24,000 bases of DNA from Thalassospira sp. (lineage in GTDB: Bacteria; Pseudomonadota; Alphaproteobacteria; Rhodospirillales; Thalassospiraceae), in assembly GCF_040218635.1 (NCBI RefSeq), contig NZ_JAVJRB010000004.1, positions 67,716 to 91,715 on the forward strand, given 5' to 3'. Shown here one piece after another: positions 4,439-13,013 of the stretch. The position numbers and the translations under genes were made by a program. Every line of letters starts with the position of its first letter. The first letter of the stretch is position 1. The notes beneath the pieces were generated by a model. That model was not told where the DNA came from, ran no database searches, and worked only from the letters and a program-made list of their open reading frames with translations.

Positions 4439-4483
4439 TATCCCACAGTTTCATGATACTTTTGCAATATGGAGACAGGCCCC

Positions 4484-5407
4484 ATGCGTTCTCTTATCCT
4501 TTCTGCTGTTGCCGCAGCAGCGTTTGTTTTTGCCGGTACGGCTGCGCAGGCGGAACGTCTGACCGACAAGCCGCTGGTGGATGCCAACTGGGTAGAAGCC
4601 AATCTTGGCAATCCGTCACTGGTTGTTGTCGATATCCGTTCGATGACCAAAGAAGGAAGCCCCTATGATGCCGGTCACATTGCCGGTTCGGTTTATGCGC
4701 CATATGGCACATTCGGCTGGCGGGCAAAGGTCGACAATGTTGTCGGCATGCTGCCGCCGGTTGATGTGATTTCCAAACGCATCGGATCGCTTGGCATTGA
4801 TAATGACAAACAGGTCGTTGTTGTGCCCGCAGGTCAGAACAGTTCGGACTTTGGGGCGGCAACCCGCGTTTATTGGACCTTCAAGGTTCTGGGCCACGAT
4901 GCGGTAACCATCCTTGATGGGGGTCAGCGCGCATGGCTTGCCGCAGGCAAAGACGTTTCAAAAGACTCGGTCGCGCCAGATGCAGTTGCCTTTAACGCCA
5001 GTTTCCGCCCGGAACTTCTGGCGTCTGCCGATGATGTCGCCAAGGCGCAAGCCAATGGTGTCGCGCTGATTGATGCCCGTCCGGTATCGCAGTTCAAAGG
5101 CGAAACCAAAAGCGGTGTTGTTGCCCGTGCGGGTGCCGTTCCGGGGGCAAAAAACATCGCCCAGTCCGAGTTTTATAACGATCAGAACGGTGCCTTTGTT
5201 GCATCGGATGTGATTGCAGGTCTGGTTGCGGATGCCGGTGTTGCCAAAGACGCCAAAGAAATCACCTATTGCAATACCGGTCACTGGGCATCGGTTGCAT
5301 GGTTTGGTTTGTCCGAAGTCATGGGCAACAAGAACACTGCAATGTATGATGGCTCCTTGACCGAATGGGCTGCTGATCCAAGCCGCGAAATGGTTATTCC
5401 GGAATAA
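4484..5407 (+). CDS. Periplasmic tandem-rhodanese sulfurtransferase (thiosulfate/3-mercaptopyruvate sulfurtransferase family)
   Basis: There is a Sec-type signal peptide (MRSLILSAVAAAAFVFAGTAAQA/ER), two rhodanese-like halves, and the active-site loop YCNTGHWAS in the C-terminal half. I prefer the ATG at 4484 over 4469 because a GGAGA lies 8 nt upstream of it. Confidence 0.85.
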   Translation: MRSLILSAVAAAAFVFAGTAAQAERLTDKPLVDANWVEANLGNPSLVVVDIRSMTKEGSPYDAGHIAGSVYAPYGTFGWRAKVDNVVGMLPPVDVISKRIGSLGIDNDKQVVVVPAGQNSSDFGAATRVYWTFKVLGHDAVTILDGGQRAWLAAGKDVSKDSVAPDAVAFNASFRPELLASADDVAKAQANGVALIDARPVSQFKGETKSGVVARAGAVPGAKNIAQSEFYNDQNGAFVASDVIAGLVADAGVAKDAKEITYCNTGHWASVAWFGLSEVMGNKNTAMYDGSLTEWAADPSREMVIPE

Positions 5408-5520: not shown

Positions 5521-6732
5521 ATGTCAGAAACGACCTTAAAAGCGCGCCCGCAGATATCGGGCTTTGAATTTGACAAGGGTCCGGCTGCGATTACGGCTGT
5601 GCTGTTTGTCATTGTCGGGATTGCAATTGCGCAGGCCGTCGATCTGCATCAGGCCGTTCTTTATGGTCTTGGCGGCATACTCGGCATTGCGCTGTATCAC
5701 GCATCATTCGGTTTTACCGGCGGTTGGCGCCGTTTCTCGGTCGAGAAGCGCGGACGCGCGATGCGGGCCCAGCTTTTAATGATCGGTGTTGCTGCCGCGG
5801 CCTTTATCCCGATGCTGGCCCTTGGAAGCCCGCTTGGCAATCCGATTGTCGGGGCGGTGGCACCGGTCGGGACATCGGTTCTGATCGGGGCGTTTTTGTT
5901 CGGGCTTGGCATGCAGCTTGGCGGTGGATGCGGGTCGGGAACCCTGTTCACGGTTGGCGGTGGCAGTGCCCGCATGTTGTTAACCCTTGTCTTCTTTATT
6001 ATTGGTGCGGTGATCGGGACGGCGCATTTGCCGATGTGGCTTGAGCTTCCGGCACTCCCGCCAATGAGCCTTGGCCGTGAATTTGGCATGACCGGTGGTC
6101 TTGTCGTTACCTTTGGCGGCTTGGCCCTGATCGCGCTTATTACGGTGCTGATTGAAAAGCGCGCGCATGGCACCCTTGAAGTCACCCCGACCGCACCACG
6201 CGCCGGGATTGCGCGGTTGTTTCATGGCCCCTGGCCGTTGGTCTGGACCGGGCTTTTGTTGGCCGGGCTGAATGTTGCGACGCTTTTGATTGCCGGTCAC
6301 CCATGGTCGATCACGTTCGGGTTTGGCCTTTGGGGGGCGAAAATCGCGCAAGTGATCGGTATTTCCGTTGAAACATGGGAATTCTGGAACTGGCCCGGAC
6401 CGGCACAGGCGCTGGTAAATTCGGTTCTGGAAGATAATACGTCGGTGATGAATTTCGGCATTGTGATTGGCGCTGCGTTTGCGGCTGCCCTTGCCGGGAA
6501 ATTTGCGCCGAAGGTTTCTGTGCCGGTTGCGTCACTGGTTGCGGCAGCAATTGGTGGATTGCTGATGGGCTATGGCGCGCGTTTGGCGTTTGGCTGCAAT
6601 ATCGGGGCGTTCTTTAGCGGGATTGCATCGGGCAGTGTTCATGGCTGGTTGTGGTTTGTTCTGGCCTTTGCGGGCAGTTGGCTTGGCATTGCACTGCGTC
6701 CTGTCTTTGGAATGGATGGTTTCCGGAAATGA
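5521..6732 (+). CDS. yeeE: YeeE/YedE family sulfur-compound (thiosulfate) transporter
   Basis: The 403-aa polytopic membrane protein has the duplicated YeeE/YedE signature cysteine loops (QLGGGCGSGTLF and RLAFGCNIGAFFSG). Confidence 0.85.
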   Translation: MSETTLKARPQISGFEFDKGPAAITAVLFVIVGIAIAQAVDLHQAVLYGLGGILGIALYHASFGFTGGWRRFSVEKRGRAMRAQLLMIGVAAAAFIPMLALGSPLGNPIVGAVAPVGTSVLIGAFLFGLGMQLGGGCGSGTLFTVGGGSARMLLTLVFFIIGAVIGTAHLPMWLELPALPPMSLGREFGMTGGLVVTFGGLALIALITVLIEKRAHGTLEVTPTAPRAGIARLFHGPWPLVWTGLLLAGLNVATLLIAGHPWSITFGFGLWGAKIAQVIGISVETWEFWNWPGPAQALVNSVLEDNTSVMNFGIVIGAAFAAALAGKFAPKVSVPVASLVAAAIGGLLMGYGARLAFGCNIGAFFSGIASGSVHGWLWFVLAFAGSWLGIALRPVFGMDGFRK

Positions 6733-7418
6733 GCGAGAAAAACACACTTCTGTTTGGTGCGGTCTTCCTTGCTGCGAGCGGGGCGGTTGCCCTGGACCAT
6801 TATAGCCACACAGCAAATATTCCGGCGGTTGCCAATCCGGCACCTGCTGCGTTTCCGGCGGCGGGCAGTAATCCGTGCGGCGCTAATCCATGCGCGGCAA
6901 ATCCCTGTGGTGCCAATCCTTGCGGCGCGAACCCTTGTGGCGCGAACCCGTGCGGGGCTGGATATAACCCGTGTGCCGCGTCGCCTTGTGGTGCAAATCC
7001 GTGTGCAGCATATAATCCGTGCGGTGCGGCCAATCCCTGTGCTGCGGCGAATCCTTGTGCGGCATCGCCGTGTTCAGCCGGGAATCCATGTGGGGCAGGG
7101 TATAACCCGTGCGCAGCGTCACCTTGTGGCGCAAATCCGTGTGCGGCGTATAATCCATGCGGTGCGGCCAATCCCTGTGCTGCGGCGAATCCTTGTGCGG
7201 CATCGCCCTGTTCGGCCGGGAATCCATGTGGTGCGGGATATAATCCGTGTGCCGCATCACCGTGCAGTGCCAATCCATGTGCGGCTTATAACCCGTGTGG
7301 GGCAGGCAATCCGTGTGCGCCATCTAACCCATGTGCGGCGGCGAACCCGTGTGCGGCGGCGAACCCGTGTGCGGCTGTGAACCCGTGCGGTGCCATGAAC
7401 CCCTGTTCTGCCAGTTGA
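6729..7418 (+). CDS. Secreted cysteine-rich (A/G)xNPC-repeat protein, unknown family
   Basis: The ATG at 6729 overlaps the yeeE TGA (ATGA). There is a signal-peptide-like N-terminus (MSEKNTLLFGAVFLAASGAVA/LD). The rest is GANPC/AANPC/AASPC/AAYNPC repeats with 32 Cys, every one preceded by Pro. The two 46-codon repeat copies are identical in protein but differ at 11 synonymous sites, which supports this reading frame. Confidence 0.75.
   Translation: MSEKNTLLFGAVFLAASGAVALDHYSHTANIPAVANPAPAAFPAAGSNPCGANPCAANPCGANPCGANPCGANPCGAGYNPCAASPCGANPCAAYNPCGAANPCAAANPCAASPCSAGNPCGAGYNPCAASPCGANPCAAYNPCGAANPCAAANPCAASPCSAGNPCGAGYNPCAASPCSANPCAAYNPCGAGNPCAPSNPCAAANPCAAANPCAAVNPCGAMNPCSAS
6954..7316 (+). 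repeat. 138-bp (46-codon) higher-order tandem repeat, about 2.6 copies, inside the NPC-repeat CDS
   Basis: Copies start at 6954, 7092 and 7230. Each encodes GAGYNPCAASPCGANPCAAYNPCGAANPCAAANPCAASPCSAGNPC. The third copy diverges after about 29 codons. The shorter 15-18-bp xxNPC periodicity runs from about 6860 to 7410. Confidence 0.9.
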
Positions 7419-7437
7419 AGTCTGTCTGGTCATGAGA

Positions 7438-7465
7438 TTGCGGGCGCAGAAATTTGCGTCCGCAA
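7438..7465 (+). terminator. Stem-loop after the NPC-repeat gene (weak terminator candidate)
   Basis: TTGCGGGCGCA-GAAATT-TGCGTCCGCAA forms an 11-bp stem with one G-U pair. It is followed by TAAAAA rather than a U-tract. Confidence 0.35.
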
Positions 7466-7473
7466 TAAAAAGG

Positions 7474-7554: not shown

Positions 7555-8838
7555 ATGGAACGCAGTTTTCATTCGCTTCGCACAGCAAACGGCTGGTCAG
7601 TGGGTGACGCAGCTGCATGGTTTGGTGTATCAATACAGAAAGTCGAGCAGTGGGATGCAGGTAACGGCAAACCTGACGAGAGATATCTGCAAGACCTTGA
7701 AGATACCTTGATATACAAAAAGAATTTCAACCGGGGCCATCCGATGAGCGACTTTACCTTTATTGACCTGTTTGCGGGAATCGGCGGTGTCCGGCGGGGG
7801 TTTGAAGCGGCTGGTGGAAAATGCGTCTTTACCAGCGAATGGGATTTGTACGCGCAAAAAACGTACCGGGAAAACTTTCCGGACGACGACCACGAGATCG
7901 CAGGCGACATAACCCGGATAAAGGCAGAAGACATTCCCGCCCATGATGTTCTTCTTGCCGGGTTCCCGTGTCAGCCGTTCTCGATTGCCGGTGTGTCCAA
8001 GAAGAATGCGCTTGGGCGCGCACACGGTTTTATGGACAAAGCCCAGGGAACCCTGTTCTTCGATGTGCTGCGTATTCTCAAGCATCACAAGCCTGCGGCC
8101 TTTATGCTTGAAAATGTCAAAAACCTTAGAAGTCATAACAAGGGCGACACATTCAAGACCATCTTGGGCGCTCTGCGTGATGAGCTTGGCTATCATGTCC
8201 AGGCAAGGGTTATCGACGGAAAAGGTTACGTTCCGCAGCACCGTGAGCGTATTTTTATTGTAGGCTTTCGAGAGGATGTGGGCTTCGACTTTGAGGCTTG
8301 TGCGTTTCCGGATGCGACTTCGGGGCCGGTTATCAGCACTATTCTTCATGCCCCGCACGAGGAACCGGAAGATCAGTTCACGTTGCCACCGGAAGATGCT
8401 CTGTCAAATGTCGCGAGCGTTGTAAATCCGAAGTACACTTTATCGGACAAGCTCTGGAAGTACCTGTTCGATTATGCCGCAAAGCACAAGGCAAAGGGCA
8501 ACGGGTTCGGGTTTGGTCTTTGTGGCCCGAATGACAAGGCCAGAACGCTTTCTGCGCGCTACTACAAAGATGGAAGTGAAATTCTGATTGATCAGGGTGA
8601 AGGCAGGAACCCGCGCCGATTGACGCCGCGTGAATGTGCTCGTCTGATGGGGTTTGATGATGACAACTTTACAATGAAAATTCCCGTTTCTGATACTCGC
8701 GCATACAAACAGTTCGGAAATTCTGTTGTTGTGCCGGTGATCAAGGAGATTGCCCGCCAGATGAAGCCTTATGTTCTAAAGAGCCTGGAATCAGAGGGGC
8801 AGGTTATTCCAGGCGAAGAGACGGTCGCAGCAGAGTGA
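7555..8838 (+). CDS. dcm: DNA (cytosine-5)-methyltransferase with N-terminal HTH regulatory domain
   Basis: All canonical C5-MTase motifs are present: I FIDLFAGIGG, IV GFPCQPFS, VI MLENVKNL, VIII QHRERIFIVG, IX RRLTPRECARLMGF, X KQFGNSVVVPV. About 60 aa of XRE-like HTH (WSVGDAAAWFGVSIQKVEQWDAGNGKP) precede motif I. I prefer the ATG at 7555 over the TTG at 7522. Confidence 0.9.
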   Translation: MERSFHSLRTANGWSVGDAAAWFGVSIQKVEQWDAGNGKPDERYLQDLEDTLIYKKNFNRGHPMSDFTFIDLFAGIGGVRRGFEAAGGKCVFTSEWDLYAQKTYRENFPDDDHEIAGDITRIKAEDIPAHDVLLAGFPCQPFSIAGVSKKNALGRAHGFMDKAQGTLFFDVLRILKHHKPAAFMLENVKNLRSHNKGDTFKTILGALRDELGYHVQARVIDGKGYVPQHRERIFIVGFREDVGFDFEACAFPDATSGPVISTILHAPHEEPEDQFTLPPEDALSNVASVVNPKYTLSDKLWKYLFDYAAKHKAKGNGFGFGLCGPNDKARTLSARYYKDGSEILIDQGEGRNPRRLTPRECARLMGFDDDNFTMKIPVSDTRAYKQFGNSVVVPVIKEIARQMKPYVLKSLESEGQVIPGEETVAAE

Positions 8839-8842
8839 TTGT

Positions 8843-9295
8843 ATGACTGACATTGTATCGCCAGCAAAACGTAGCGAGATGATGTCAGGTATACGGGGCA
8901 AAAATACCAAACCTGAAATATTGGTGCGCAAGGCCTTGCACGCCAGAGGGTTTCGGTATCGTTTGCATGGAAGGCGGCTACCGGGAAAGCCGGACATCGT
9001 TCTTCCGAAATACAATGCTGTCATATTTGTCCATGGCTGTTTCTGGCACGGACATGATTGCCATTTGTTCAAGCTGCCCAGATCACGTACCGAATTCTGG
9101 CAAGAGAAGATCAAAAGCAATCGGGAGCGAGATGTTGAAATCCGCAAGTTGTTGCTGGACAACGGTTGGCGTGTAGCCGAAGTTTGGGAATGCTCTGTTA
9201 AAGGGAAATTGCGTATCGACTTGCCCGATTTGATTGTCCGGCTTGTCAACTGGCTTACCGGGGAAGAACCTGAACTGGAAGTGCGTGGGGGATAA
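8843..9295 (+). CDS. vsr: Very short patch repair (T:G mismatch) endonuclease
   Basis: The 150-aa ORF has Vsr hallmarks: RSEMMSGIRGKNTKPE, LPGKPDIVLPKYNAVIFVHGCFWHGH, EFWQEKIKSNRERD, GWRVAEVWEC. It starts 4 nt after the methyltransferase stop. Confidence 0.9.
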   Translation: MTDIVSPAKRSEMMSGIRGKNTKPEILVRKALHARGFRYRLHGRRLPGKPDIVLPKYNAVIFVHGCFWHGHDCHLFKLPRSRTEFWQEKIKSNRERDVEIRKLLLDNGWRVAEVWECSVKGKLRIDLPDLIVRLVNWLTGEEPELEVRGG

Positions 9296-10629
9296 TGTTT
9301 GAAGAAATTTCTGCGCTGATCGGTCGAATGGCGGAATGTGGCGCAAAGAGGTTCTATGCCAAGAGATTGGCTCCAAATGACAATTCGAAGAACCAGATTT
9401 ATCTGGGAGGTGACTTTTCAGCGCTTAACGTTATCCCGCATCAGGAAATTTATACAGATAGCGACGAGGTTTCGGGAAGCAAACGGGACAGGGCCAAAGC
9501 CGGAATTTTGTTTTCATGGATCGATGAAGCAGGCTTGTATGAAGCACCTAATGCTCAGTTGATTCTTTATCCGAAGTATCCCGAAGTCAGAATGTCCGGC
9601 TTTCTGAAGGGGTGCCGGAAAGCCCCGTCAAACATCCTTAAGGTCAGGGATGAAGGTCGCGTGATGTTCCTTGGTATCACCGATGCAGGCCGTGTTTTGG
9701 GCTATGCCGTTGATCAGGTGCATCCCTTGGCTAGAGAACTCGCATCTCACCCGGAAATCTCGGAGATCGGAGTTTTCCTGGAGATCCCGTCTCGCCCCGG
9801 CGCGGGAAGTTCCCGTACCCAGTTGCTGCGAAAGTTGAAGGAAATACACAGAAAGCAATGGATTCCGTCGCAGAAACTGGGGGCGGATGGAGAAGTTCAT
9901 TCTTATGTCGCGCGGAATGGTGGTGGCTATACTCTTGAAGCAGAATTGGGGATTGCTCCGAACGGGTATGCCGAACCCGATTATCTGGGTTGGGAGATCA
10001 AGCAATTCGGAGTGCGTGATTTTAGCAGATACCTTCCAAAGGGCCCTGTTACTCTTATGACTCCCGAGCCGTCTGGAGGAATTTACAAAGACCTCGGTGT
10101 GACTGCATTCCTGCGTTCTTATGGATACAAGGATAAAAACGGTGTTCCGGACAGGCTGAATTTCGGGGGGATATATTCTTGTGATAAACCGCCTCACAAG
10201 GATACGGGACTGCGCCTGGGGTTAATCGGGTATGATGTGGCCACCGAAAAAATAACAGACATTGAAGGTGGACTGGCTTTGTTTTCAAAGGGTGATGAAA
10301 TTGCCGCTCTCTGGAAGTTTGCTTCAATAATGGATCACTGGAACAGAAAGCACGCGCAAGCAGCTTATGTGCCTTCGATTTTCCGTCAGGGGCCACCGGC
10401 TTATGCTTACGGGGCAAAAATTCTGTTATGTGAGAAAACCGACTTTAACCTGTTTCTGAATGCGATTGCTTCCGGGGCGATATATTATGATCCGGCTATA
10501 AAAATGGAACAGATGTCGTCCTTGAGCCCGAAGATAAAACGAAGAAGTCAGTTTCGTGTGAAGCATCAGAGTCTGGCTGCGCTTTATCAGAACGCGGAAG
10601 AGGTCGATCTGGAAAAGTTCGAAGACTGA
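9295..10629 (+). CDS. Putative restriction endonuclease: EcoRII-N-like N-terminal domain fused to an MvaI/BcnI (MutH-like) PD-ExK nuclease domain
   Basis: Its start overlaps the vsr stop (TAATG). The N-terminal FYAKRLAPNDNSKNQIYLGG resembles the EcoRII effector-domain block YIKRLSANDTGATGGHQVGLYIP. The C-terminal half has GGGYTLEAELGI..N..AEPDYLGWEIKQ......VTLMTPEPSG and KIKRRSQFRVKHQSLAALY. These match my recollection of MvaI (GNTGIGKTFEDLL..PDF..IEIKT..LTLFTKSP; HGTAFRI...LLEY). The match is from memory and has not been aligned. Confidence 0.55.
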   Translation: MFEEISALIGRMAECGAKRFYAKRLAPNDNSKNQIYLGGDFSALNVIPHQEIYTDSDEVSGSKRDRAKAGILFSWIDEAGLYEAPNAQLILYPKYPEVRMSGFLKGCRKAPSNILKVRDEGRVMFLGITDAGRVLGYAVDQVHPLARELASHPEISEIGVFLEIPSRPGAGSSRTQLLRKLKEIHRKQWIPSQKLGADGEVHSYVARNGGGYTLEAELGIAPNGYAEPDYLGWEIKQFGVRDFSRYLPKGPVTLMTPEPSGGIYKDLGVTAFLRSYGYKDKNGVPDRLNFGGIYSCDKPPHKDTGLRLGLIGYDVATEKITDIEGGLALFSKGDEIAALWKFASIMDHWNRKHAQAAYVPSIFRQGPPAYAYGAKILLCEKTDFNLFLNAIASGAIYYDPAIKMEQMSSLSPKIKRRSQFRVKHQSLAALYQNAEEVDLEKFED

Positions 10630-10929: not shown

Positions 10930-12723
10930 TTGACCCAGTTTTCCGAACTCGGCCTGGCCGAGCCGGTCCTTCGCGCACTAGCGCAAGAAGGATATGATGC
11001 GCCCACCCCTATTCAGGCGCAATCCATCCCGTCCCTGCTCCAAGGTAAGGACCTGCTTGGTATCGCTCAGACCGGTACCGGTAAGACGGCAGCATTCGCG
11101 TTGCCGATCCTAGATCGCCTCTCCAAAACCGAAGGTCGTACACCCAAGGGTGCCTGCCGTGTGCTGGTACTTGCACCGACGCGCGAACTTGCTGCGCAGA
11201 TCGGTGAAAGTTTCCGTGCCTATGGCCGCTTCCTGAATGTCCGCGTTGCCGTGGTCGTTGGTGGTGTTGCCCCGGGTCCCCAGATCAAAGCGATTAATCC
11301 AGGTGTCGAGGTGCTTGTCGCCACCCCTGGTCGTTTGCTTGATCATGTTGATAGTGGCAAGCTGAGCCTTAAGCATGTTGACGTCGTGGTTCTTGATGAA
11401 GCCGACCATATGCTTGACCTTGGCTTCCTGCCGCCAATCAAACGCATCATCAAAATGCTTCCGCGTAACCGTCAGAACCTGTTCTTCTCGGCAACCATGC
11501 CGGGGCAGATCGGTCAGCTGGCTGGTGATATGCTTTCTGATCCGGTCAAGGTGTCGGTAACCCCGGTTTCCACCACTCAGGAACGTGTCGAGCAGTCGGT
11601 TTATCTGATCGAGCGGACCCGCAAGCGTCAGCTTTTGGCTGAACTTCTTGATAATCCGGTTTTCAAACGCACCTTGGTCTTTACCCGGACCAAGCGTGGT
11701 GCCGATCGTGTTGCCCGTCATCTTGAGGCAAACAAGATCAGTGCAGCAGCCATTCACGGCAATAAAAGTCAGAACCAGCGCGAGCGCGCTCTGAACGCCT
11801 TTAAGGACGGTCAGATCGGTGTGCTTGTTGCAACCGATATCGCAGCACGCGGTATTGATGTTGATGCTGTGACTCACGTCGTGAATTTCGAACTTCCCAA
11901 CGTCCCGGAAAGCTATGTCCACCGTATCGGCCGTACGGCCCGTGGCGGTGCCAGCGGTTGCGCAATTGCATTCTGTGATGCCGAAGAACGTGGTTTGCTG
12001 CGCGATATCGAAAGAACAACCCGTCAGACGATCCCGGTAATTGATCGTCGCGATGCCAAGCTTGCTGCTGAGCAGGAAGCGCTGTCGGACGAGCCACGCG
12101 AAACCAACCGTGGACGTCGTTCCAGTGGTGGTCAGCCGCGCGGCAACGGTGGTCGCAACAATGGTGGCAATAATAATGGTCGTCGTGGTGGCGAAGGCAA
12201 CCGCAGCGCATCTGCTGGTCGGAATGACCGGGATGGCCGTGCTGCTGGTGGTCCGCGTCGCCCGGATGATGCCCGCAAACCTGCGGTGCGTCGTGACGTC
12301 GAAGTCAATGCCCGTTCGACTGAAAAGGCCGAGGTGAATCCGGCCCTGGAAAAATCGAAAAGCCGTTTTAAAGGCGGGATCAAATCCAAGCCGGAAAATG
12401 GTCGTGGCACCGGTGCCGGTAACGGCGCGGGTCAAGCAGATGGTCGCAAGCGCCCGACGAAACGTGTGGATTCCAATGGAAACCGCCGCGACGGTGTGCA
12501 AGGTGACAATTCAATTTCTTCCGGTCTTTCCTTTATGGGAAGCACCGAGGAACGCCGCGCGAATGGCAACGGGGGCAATGCCGCCCGGACCGCCAGACCG
12601 CAAGGCAAGCGCGGCGGTGCGAACCGCAATCGCAATCAACGTGGTCCACAACCTGGCGGGCAGCCGGGTGGGGCGGGCCGCGATACATCTTCCGGTAATC
12701 AGAGAAAGCGTGACCACGCCTGA
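10930..12723 (+). CDS. rhlE: DEAD-box ATP-dependent RNA helicase (RhlE-like) with a long Arg/Gly/Asn-rich C-terminal tail
   Basis: It has a Q-motif (GYDAPTPIQ), motif I AQTGTGKT, PTRELA, VLDEADHM, SAT, and HRIGRTARGG. About 200 aa of RG/RGG/NGG low-complexity tail follow. The only in-frame start after the upstream stop is the TTG at 10930. Confidence 0.9.
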   Translation: MTQFSELGLAEPVLRALAQEGYDAPTPIQAQSIPSLLQGKDLLGIAQTGTGKTAAFALPILDRLSKTEGRTPKGACRVLVLAPTRELAAQIGESFRAYGRFLNVRVAVVVGGVAPGPQIKAINPGVEVLVATPGRLLDHVDSGKLSLKHVDVVVLDEADHMLDLGFLPPIKRIIKMLPRNRQNLFFSATMPGQIGQLAGDMLSDPVKVSVTPVSTTQERVEQSVYLIERTRKRQLLAELLDNPVFKRTLVFTRTKRGADRVARHLEANKISAAAIHGNKSQNQRERALNAFKDGQIGVLVATDIAARGIDVDAVTHVVNFELPNVPESYVHRIGRTARGGASGCAIAFCDAEERGLLRDIERTTRQTIPVIDRRDAKLAAEQEALSDEPRETNRGRRSSGGQPRGNGGRNNGGNNNGRRGGEGNRSASAGRNDRDGRAAGGPRRPDDARKPAVRRDVEVNARSTEKAEVNPALEKSKSRFKGGIKSKPENGRGTGAGNGAGQADGRKRPTKRVDSNGNRRDGVQGDNSISSGLSFMGSTEERRANGNGGNAARTARPQGKRGGANRNRNQRGPQPGGQPGGAGRDTSSGNQRKRDHA

Positions 12724-12803: not shown

Positions 12804-13013
12804 ATGGCAACTGGTACAGTTAAATGGTTCAACGCAACTAAAGGTTTTGGTTTCATTCAGCCTGACGAAGGCGGAAATGACGTATTCCTGCACATCAGCG
12901 CTGTTGAACGCGCTGGTATGGGTCACCCACAGGAAGGCGACAAAATCAATTACGAACTGCGTACCGACTCACGTTCGGGCCGCGTTTCGGCTGACGACCT
13001 GACTGCTGCTTAA
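12804..13013 (+). CDS. cspA: Cold-shock protein, CspA family
   Basis: The 69-aa ORF has the RNP1 motif KGFGFI (in TGTVKWFNATKGFGFIQP) and the RNP2 motif VFLHI. AAGGAGA lies upstream. Confidence 0.95.
   Translation: MATGTVKWFNATKGFGFIQPDEGGNDVFLHISAVERAGMGHPQEGDKINYELRTDSRSGRVSADDLTAA

Follow-up and report, generated by a model that had tools for sequence, protein, structure and literature searches.

A Dcm-like/Vsr operon of Thalassospira carries a likely UbaLAI-type restriction endonuclease joining a B3-type pseudobarrel to an MvaI/BcnI-family nuclease

What kind of enzyme is encoded at positions 9295 to 10629 of the stretch of Thalassospira sp. DNA shown above (assembly GCF_040218635.1, contig NZ_JAVJRB010000004.1, positions 67,716 to 91,715)? 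The original prediction for this stretch of 24,000 nucleotides (hereafter, the window) described a restriction endonuclease in which an effector domain like the N-terminal domain of EcoRII (EcoRII-N) is fused to a catalytic domain of the MvaI/BcnI type. Its reading of the gene was borne out: the open reading frame (ORF) begins with ATG on the + strand and encodes 444 amino acids (aa), and the blocks that it quoted are present, namely FYAKRLAPNDNSKNQIYLGG (residues 20-39), GGGYTLEAELG (209-219), EPDYLGWEIKQ (227-237), TLMTPEPSG (253-261), and RSQFRVKHQSLAALY (417-431). The gene is real and no chance ORF; the very same protein is encoded on 5 public contigs, and more than 4350 homologs were found among 5.8 billion proteins searched, most of them annotated as “MvaI/BcnI family restriction endonuclease” or “hypothetical protein,” with the top 120 being 59-84% identical over the full length.

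The prediction also held that this domain combination was not a characterized enzyme, and here it was mistaken. The architecture is not new, since UbaLAI, which joins an EcoRII-N-like domain (residues 1-164; crystal structure 5o63) to an MvaI-like domain (residues 165-405), has been characterized both biochemically and structurally (Sasnauskas et al., NAR 2017, PMC5766183). UbaLAI, a monomer, is a Type IIE restriction enzyme that makes a double-strand cut at CC/WGG, and its N-domain holds one site, tethering the C-domain, with its single active site, as it nicks both strands of a second (PMC5766183). We consider it likely that the endonuclease of the window is a UbaLAI-type monomeric Type IIE enzyme within a Dcm-like/Vsr restriction-modification (R-M) operon, probably targeting CCWGG. 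What the analysis shows is the fold and family of each domain, the conservation of catalytic and arm residues, and that of the operon. Relative to the overall view, we are more confident of an R-M endonuclease with B3 and MvaI-like domains and less confident of the two-site mechanism and of the precise target.

As had been proposed, the C-terminal half clearly belongs to the MvaI/BcnI family of nucleases, and its catalytic tetrad is intact. It matched PF15515 (MvaI_BcnI) along the entire model (positions 1-227 of 227; E=1e-40, 140.6 bits versus a cutoff of 25). An AlphaFold2 model of the whole endonuclease (predicted local distance difference test [pLDDT], 87.5; predicted template modeling score [pTM], 0.82) displayed the two-lobed MutH/MvaI-like fold, with Foldseek matches in the PDB to BcnI (2odi; E=1.4e-11, template modeling [TM] score 0.73) and MvaI (2oaa; E=2e-11, TM 0.71). 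Those two enzymes are indeed of about 240 aa, their PDB chains being 238-249 aa long. When PDB sequences were searched by phmmer with the single endonuclease sequence, or with a narrow family profile (A1), nothing relevant was found. A broad profile (A4), built from 120 diverse family sequences reaching down to 29% identity, retrieved MvaI at E=1.1e-10 and BcnI at E=1.3e-6.

Residues E215, D229, E234, and K236 align residue for residue with MvaI E36, D50, E55, and K57 (the published active site; numbering in the PDB chain is offset by +3) and are invariant across the 120 sequences. Elements predicted to read DNA were likewise recognizable. D399, within the motif YYDP, is conserved and aligns to MvaI D207, while K415, R417, and R421 of the strand KRRSQFR align to MvaI H223, H225, and R230, with both R421 and the strand being conserved in the family. 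The residue with which MvaI reads the central T, R209, is not conserved, and A401 stands in its place.

The proposed likeness of the N-terminal domain to EcoRII-N was upheld in part. For residues 1-177, neither Pfam nor NCBIfam gave any match at E<=1, and this includes PF09217 (EcoRII-N). The domain modeled alone (pLDDT 88.9, pTM 0.87) had B3-type DNA-binding pseudobarrels as its sole high-probability PDB matches, the top one being the C-terminal domain of BfiI (3zi5; E=1.6e-3, probability 1.0, TM 0.52-0.54), with ARF5, the TEM1 B3 domain, LlaJI.R1-N, and At1g16640 among the others. On the strength of this model, we take the domain to be a B3-type pseudobarrel, a superfamily that contains EcoRII-N. 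Profile comparisons were consistent with a distant relationship. Against the single EcoRII-N sequence, profile A2 aligned just a 13-residue motif (probability 0.7%). A broadened N-domain profile compared by hhalign with an EcoRII-N family profile, which was built from an EcoRII-N sequence 100% identical to PDB 1na6, gave a weak match over 106 collinear columns (19-141 versus 17-139; score 30.6, P=3.4e-4, probability 38%). All null controls scored lower, the best of 30 column shuffles reaching 23.8 over 15 columns and the reversed profile 14.8 over 7, and two unrelated-profile controls also fell below. The domain is therefore not a member of PF09217 and is probably a remote relative of EcoRII-N outside that family.

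The hhalign comparison pairs a predicted N-arm, KRLAPNDNSKNQ, with EcoRII KRLSANDTGATGGHQ, and it sets E97 and R99 of a predicted C-arm against EcoRII E96 and R98. Across the 120 diverse members, K23 and N28 of the N-arm are invariant and L25, D29, N30, S31, K32, and Q34 are at least 90% conserved; in the C-arm, Y92, E97, and R99 are invariant and Y95 is at least 90% conserved. The C-arm pattern Y92-P-K94-Y95-P-E97-V-R99 has the same spacing as the base-contact residues of UbaLAI-N (Y84, R86, Y87, E89, and R91), and EcoRII E96 and UbaLAI E89 are matching cytosine contacts (PMC5766183).

These residues bear on whether the pseudobarrel reads a second site at all. The protein might instead be an ordinary Type IIP MvaI-like enzyme with no need of two sites, whose pseudobarrel is a structural, nonspecifically clamping, or regulatory appendage. 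MvaI and BcnI, after all, work efficiently without an extra domain (PMC5766183), and the N-domain bears a weak resemblance to EcoRII-N and UbaLAI-N, with UbaLAI compared by description, not by alignment. An appendage of this kind, however, sits poorly with the finding that the N-domain residues under the strongest conservation lie precisely within the two predicted arms. Five of these (K23, N28, Y92, E97, and R99), which are polar or charged as is typical of base readout, are invariant down to 29% identity, and two of the five, E97 and R99, align with base-contact residues of EcoRII. Moreover, the characterized restriction-enzyme B3 domains listed in PMC5766183 all bind DNA specifically. We therefore regard the Type IIP alternative as unlikely.

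A Type II enzyme should travel with a methyltransferase, and the endonuclease gene lies in a cassette with two others (Table 1). The methyltransferase stop lies 4 nucleotides ahead of the ATG of Vsr, a very-short-patch repair endonuclease, and the Vsr stop and the endonuclease ATG overlap as TAATG. Given their shared strand and these overlapping or nearly overlapping stops and starts, the three genes look like one operon. The Vsr gene, which lies between the other two, had gone unmentioned in the original prediction; its product scored 151 bits with TIGR00632, above the cutoff of 97.85. G+C content is about 0.50 over the cassette versus 0.55-0.59 in the flanks, which consist of housekeeping genes (rhodanese, a YeeE-type sulfur transporter, a DEAD-box helicase, and CspA).

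Table 1. Coordinates in the window of the cassette genes, the endonuclease domains, and the associated features
Feature	Position	Strand	Basis
Two-domain restriction endonuclease	9295..10629	+	ATG start, 444 aa
B3-type DNA-binding pseudobarrel, predicted effector/tether domain, residues 1-172	9295..9810	+	AlphaFold2, Foldseek, hhalign
Predicted N-arm, K23-Q34, KRLAPNDNSKNQ	9361..9396	+	Conservation; aligned to EcoRII KRLSANDTGATGGHQ
Predicted C-arm, Y92-P-K94-Y95-P-E97-V-R99	9568..9591	+	Conservation; UbaLAI-N spacing; EcoRII alignment
MvaI/BcnI-type PD-(D/E)XK nuclease domain, residues 178-431	9826..10587	+	PF15515, Foldseek, profile A4
Catalytic core, E215...D229-x4-E234-x-K236	9937..10002	+	Invariant; aligned to MvaI
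Predicted major-groove recognition elements	10489..10557	+	Alignment read against MvaI contacts
Dcm-like cytosine-C5 DNA methyltransferase, short N-terminal helix-turn-helix (HTH)-like region	7555..8838	+	PF00145, 1.6e-84
Vsr very-short-patch repair endonuclease	8843..9295	+	PF03852, 2.5e-34; TIGR00632
Inverted repeat, ATTGCGGGCGCA-N6-TGCGTCCGCAAT	7437..7466		12-nucleotide arms, 92% complementary

The methyltransferase ORF has a mechanical start at TTG 7522 and a likely start at ATG 7555. Its product is a C5 methyltransferase, as predicted (PF00145, 284.6 bits; TIGR00675, 312 bits versus a cutoff of 100.65). The same prediction had placed it in the SsoII/EcoRII architectural type, and for this the N-terminus gave weak, subthreshold matches to HTH_28 and HTH_31. 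With PRK10458, the Dcm subfamily of NCBIfam, it scored 422.7 (1.6e-126), below the curated cutoff of 710, and we therefore call it Dcm-like and not an equivalog. The core is 49% identical to Escherichia coli Dcm, variable region included, and 55% identical to an Enterobacter plasmid methyltransferase that adjoins an EcoRII-C-family endonuclease. This double likeness points to C5 methylation of the inner cytosine of CCWGG or CCNGG, as far as sequence similarity can tell. On the Enterobacter cloacae plasmid CP033469 (locus L004, 4254-5492), we observed a 412-aa endonuclease with EcoRII-C (PF09019) at residues 236-403, the N-terminal 235 aa of which had no match to EcoRII-N (PF09217); it may carry another divergent, or a different, effector domain on an EcoRII-type nuclease.

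The association of these genes extends well beyond Thalassospira. Counting one genome per GTDB species, relatives of the endonuclease occur in at least 534 species, mainly Alphaproteobacteria. Among the 80 best loci, on which gene order was scored, the order methyltransferase, Vsr, endonuclease was kept in 65, and a C5 methyltransferase lay within 3 kb of the endonuclease in 76; three of the four remaining loci are cut by contig ends. The cassette is also found on small mobilizable and conjugative plasmids, where gene order is somewhat variable. Linkage of endonuclease and methyltransferase is thus conserved across taxa and seen on plasmids too, as expected of a Type II R-M system. A homolog in Loktanella atrilutea (locus L070, 9962-11320) has full flanks and no C5 methyltransferase within 3 kb. 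Its neighbors are a NERD-helicase protein, an MrfA Zn-binding-domain protein, and an AAA ATPase beside an S8 peptidase, and it may be a solitary endonuclease in a defense island.

The fusion itself appears to be fixed. A phmmer search of 1.84 billion representatives with the N-domain gave 504 matches; among the 150 listed, the matched region was N-terminal or nearly so, and most of the proteins were 400-480 aa long. Ten matches of intermediate length were scanned, half of which had a partial MvaI_BcnI domain and the rest no Pfam match, and in these ten no alternative partner of the N-domain was found. Among all matches listed or scanned, the domain was seen just at the N-terminus of MvaI_BcnI proteins of about 430-460 aa or in fragments of such proteins. 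No hidden Markov model in PADLOC-DB v2 matched the endonuclease family, and the methyltransferase and Vsr were recognized. With the N-domain outside Pfam and NCBIfam and the endonuclease lacking a PADLOC model, automated surveys probably score such loci as an orphan Dcm plus Vsr.

In the window, CCWGG occurs 24 times versus 59.5 expected (observed/expected ratio [O/E], 0.40), and CCSGG has an O/E of 0.89. When 75 carrier loci were pooled and the cassette excluded, CCWGG had an O/E of 0.63 and ranked 2 of 512, compared with 0.97 for CCSGG. Four control alphaproteobacterial replicons without the family also had CCWGG O/E values of 0.70-0.83; because these replicons are depleted as well, we downgraded the depletion from strong to suggestive evidence. 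The family profile, for its part, scores MvaI (CCWGG) above BcnI (CCSGG), and the residues with which MvaI reads the CC/GG pairs, D207 and R230, are retained here, which also favors such a target. We infer that the endonuclease probably targets CCWGG, or less likely CCNGG, and that 5-methylcytosine (5mC) would block it.

A separate depletion was apparent in the same counts. GAATC had an O/E of 0.37 in the window, and GANTC (GAATC/GATTC and GACTC/GAGTC) was among the most depleted 5-mers; its two words ranked 1 and 3 of 512 over the 75 alphaproteobacterial loci and had O/E values of 0.42-0.63 in the four control replicons. We take GANTC to be the CcrM methylation site of Alphaproteobacteria, and its depletion suggests an alphaproteobacterial host for the window.

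The caution in the original prediction about C5 sensitivity was well placed, as 5mC is tolerated by MvaI, whose own methyltransferase is of the N4 type. The authors of the MvaI study found this tolerance hard to predict, with the modeled methyl groups lying within ~3 Å of the recognition strand. Given such proximity in MvaI and the divergence of the corresponding strand, KRRSQFR, the endonuclease of the window is plausibly 5mC-sensitive. If Dcm-type 5mC does block it, it would be an MvaI-fold enzyme with a methyl sensitivity opposite to that of MvaI, which would make it a useful comparison for 5mC sensing and possibly a CC/WGG-cutting, Dcm-sensitive reagent.

The presence of Vsr raises the question of whether the enzyme could act in repair. 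The original prediction had allowed for a methyl-directed or nicking role, and a MutH-like strand-discrimination nickase, cooperating with Vsr and the methyltransferase, would nick the unmethylated strand at hemimethylated sites. MvaI and BcnI are structurally related to MutH, and the endonuclease gene is translationally coupled to Vsr. Furthermore, since MvaI ignores 5mC, homology by itself does not fix how the enzyme relates to methylation. The conserved cassette nonetheless disfavors this role, for it is mobile and patchy, occurs on mobilizable and conjugative plasmids, shows a dip in G+C content, and varies in order, all of which is typical of R-M. The order methyltransferase, Vsr, endonuclease is standard in m5C R-M systems, one homolog sits among defense-like genes, and the avoidance of CCWGG in carrier genomes fits restriction pressure. 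UbaLAI, with the same architecture, cuts double strands. A repair nickase is thus very improbable. Were it nevertheless correct, the enzyme would be a B3-guided, 5mC-keyed analogue of MutH that marks the unmethylated strand at hemimethylated CCWGG, and the mobile cassette would be a strand-discrimination device for bacteria without Dam/MutH.

We give slightly less credence still to a modification-dependent (Type IIM/IV) nuclease directed against foreign DNA that contains 5mC, the adjacent methyltransferase being of another specificity. B3-like and other accessory domains are sometimes readers of modified bases in other nuclease families, and a passage in PMC3001055 reports that MvaI nicks some C5-methylated BcnI sites. 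That 76 of 80 loci link the enzyme to a C5 methyltransferase, most of them within a single operon, speaks to the contrary, because a 5mC-dependent nuclease so linked would be self-destructive unless the two specificities were disjoint. The fold matches, in addition, are to B3 sequence readers and not to 5mC readers of the SRA/EVE type, and PADLOC returned no match to modification-dependent systems.

We therefore favor restriction by a UbaLAI-like enzyme, and the following sequence of events would account for the locus. A mobile Type II R-M operon would express, in order, the methyltransferase, Vsr, and the endonuclease. The Dcm-like C5 methyltransferase would methylate host sites, Vsr would repair the T:G mismatches arising from deamination of 5mC, and the 444-aa enzyme would cut unmethylated incoming DNA. 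By analogy with UbaLAI, the enzyme would most likely act as a monomer in which the N-terminal B3-type pseudobarrel tethers the protein by binding to one copy of the recognition site, while the C-terminal domain, through its single active site (E215, D229, E234, and K236), nicks the strands of a second copy sequentially. Such an enzyme would be of Type IIE, its need for two sites serving as a “safety catch”; it would cut as CC/WGG, and C5 methylation on the inner cytosine would block it. The monomeric two-site mechanism is inferred in this way, as are the exact target and the sensitivity to 5mC.

Several features lie around the cassette. The inverted repeat is located about 90 bp upstream of the methyltransferase ATG and 3' of a repeat-protein gene, and it could be an operator for the HTH of the methyltransferase or a terminator of the upstream gene. 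In SsoII-type systems the N-terminal HTH of the methyltransferase autoregulates, which offers a parallel for the operator reading. A promoter and terminator scan around the cassette found sites no more numerous than in shuffled sequence. The ORF at 6651-7418 (+) consists of nearly nothing other than pentapeptide repeats of the type NPC(A/G)A, with a cysteine at every fifth residue; it had no Pfam match, and its DNA contains tandem repeats with periods of 15, 18, 69, and 138. Directly upstream are genes for a rhodanese (4469-5407) and for YeeE/YedE sulfur transport (5521-6732), and because of these neighbors the ORF may encode a secreted Cys-rich protein tied to sulfur or metal handling. Immediately 3' of the cassette, the DEAD-box helicase (10930-12723, +) has a C-terminal tail of about 200 aa rich in Arg, Gly, and Asn, and it is followed by a CspA-type cold-shock gene (12804-13013).

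How does the enzyme compare with known systems? With MvaI and BcnI (2oaa and 2odi; PF15515) it shares the catalytic-domain family, the fold, and the E-D-ExK tetrad, residue for residue, and the CC/GG readers D207 and R230 of MvaI are conserved as D399 and R421. Those enzymes, in contrast, are monomeric, single-domain Type IIP proteins of about 240 aa, with a structure-based identity to the 444-aa endonuclease of about 16-18%. Enzymes of their family cut CC/NGG-type sites through two nicks made one after the other, which leaves 1-nt 5' overhangs. MvaI also differs in being protected by N4 methylation and indifferent to 5mC, whereas the partner methyltransferase here is a C5 enzyme, and in its central-base reader R209, which is not conserved. 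When the literature was searched for MvaI/BcnI-type enzymes in company with Vsr, just reviews and unrelated enzymes came up.

EcoRII, a dimeric Type IIE enzyme cutting at /CCWGG (1na6 and 3hqf), has an N-terminal effector of the same pseudobarrel superfamily, with the KRLxxND motif of the N-arm and the E-x-R of the C-arm common to both, and likewise has a Dcm-type C5 methyltransferase partner with an N-terminal HTH-like region. The 444-aa endonuclease differs in having no PF09217 match and a different predicted cut position. Its nuclease is MvaI-like and, by analogy, would be monomeric, whereas EcoRII-C is a PspGI-like base-flipping dimer. The BfiI C-terminal domain and plant B3 domains, although they match the N-domain best in structure (TM 0.52-0.54 for 3zi5), share 8-12% sequence identity with it and have other DNA targets and other partners (a PLD nuclease and transcription-factor contexts, respectively).

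The closest parallel is UbaLAI. It, too, places an N-terminal B3/EcoRII-N-like pseudobarrel of about 165-172 aa before a C-terminal MvaI-like PD-(D/E)XK domain with a single active site, its C-arm contacts follow the pattern Y-x-R/K-Y-x-E-x-R with identical spacing, and its mechanism is the one that we predict here by analogy. This likeness was judged from the published domain layout and contact-residue spacing and not from an alignment of the UbaLAI sequence. UbaLAI-N (5o63) was not matched by any profile at E<=10 (the narrow A1 profile, the EcoRII-N family profile, or A4), nor did it appear in the top 50 Foldseek matches of the whole-protein and N-domain models. UbaLAI is 405 aa long versus 444 aa, and its C-domain is described as close to MvaI, whereas this clade needs the 120-sequence profile to find MvaI at 1e-10. 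The partners here are a Dcm-like C5 methyltransferase and Vsr; the main text of the UbaLAI paper (PMC5766183) does not state a methyltransferase type or methyl sensitivity. The endonuclease is a relative of UbaLAI that has diverged very far, or possibly an analogue. We tentatively raise, while leaning against it, the idea that the fusion took place independently in this clade, converging with UbaLAI, and that an MvaI-type nuclease turned 5mC-sensitive there. Either way, an architecture described from a single environmental clone is in fact widespread, and the cassette that carries it is often plasmid-borne.

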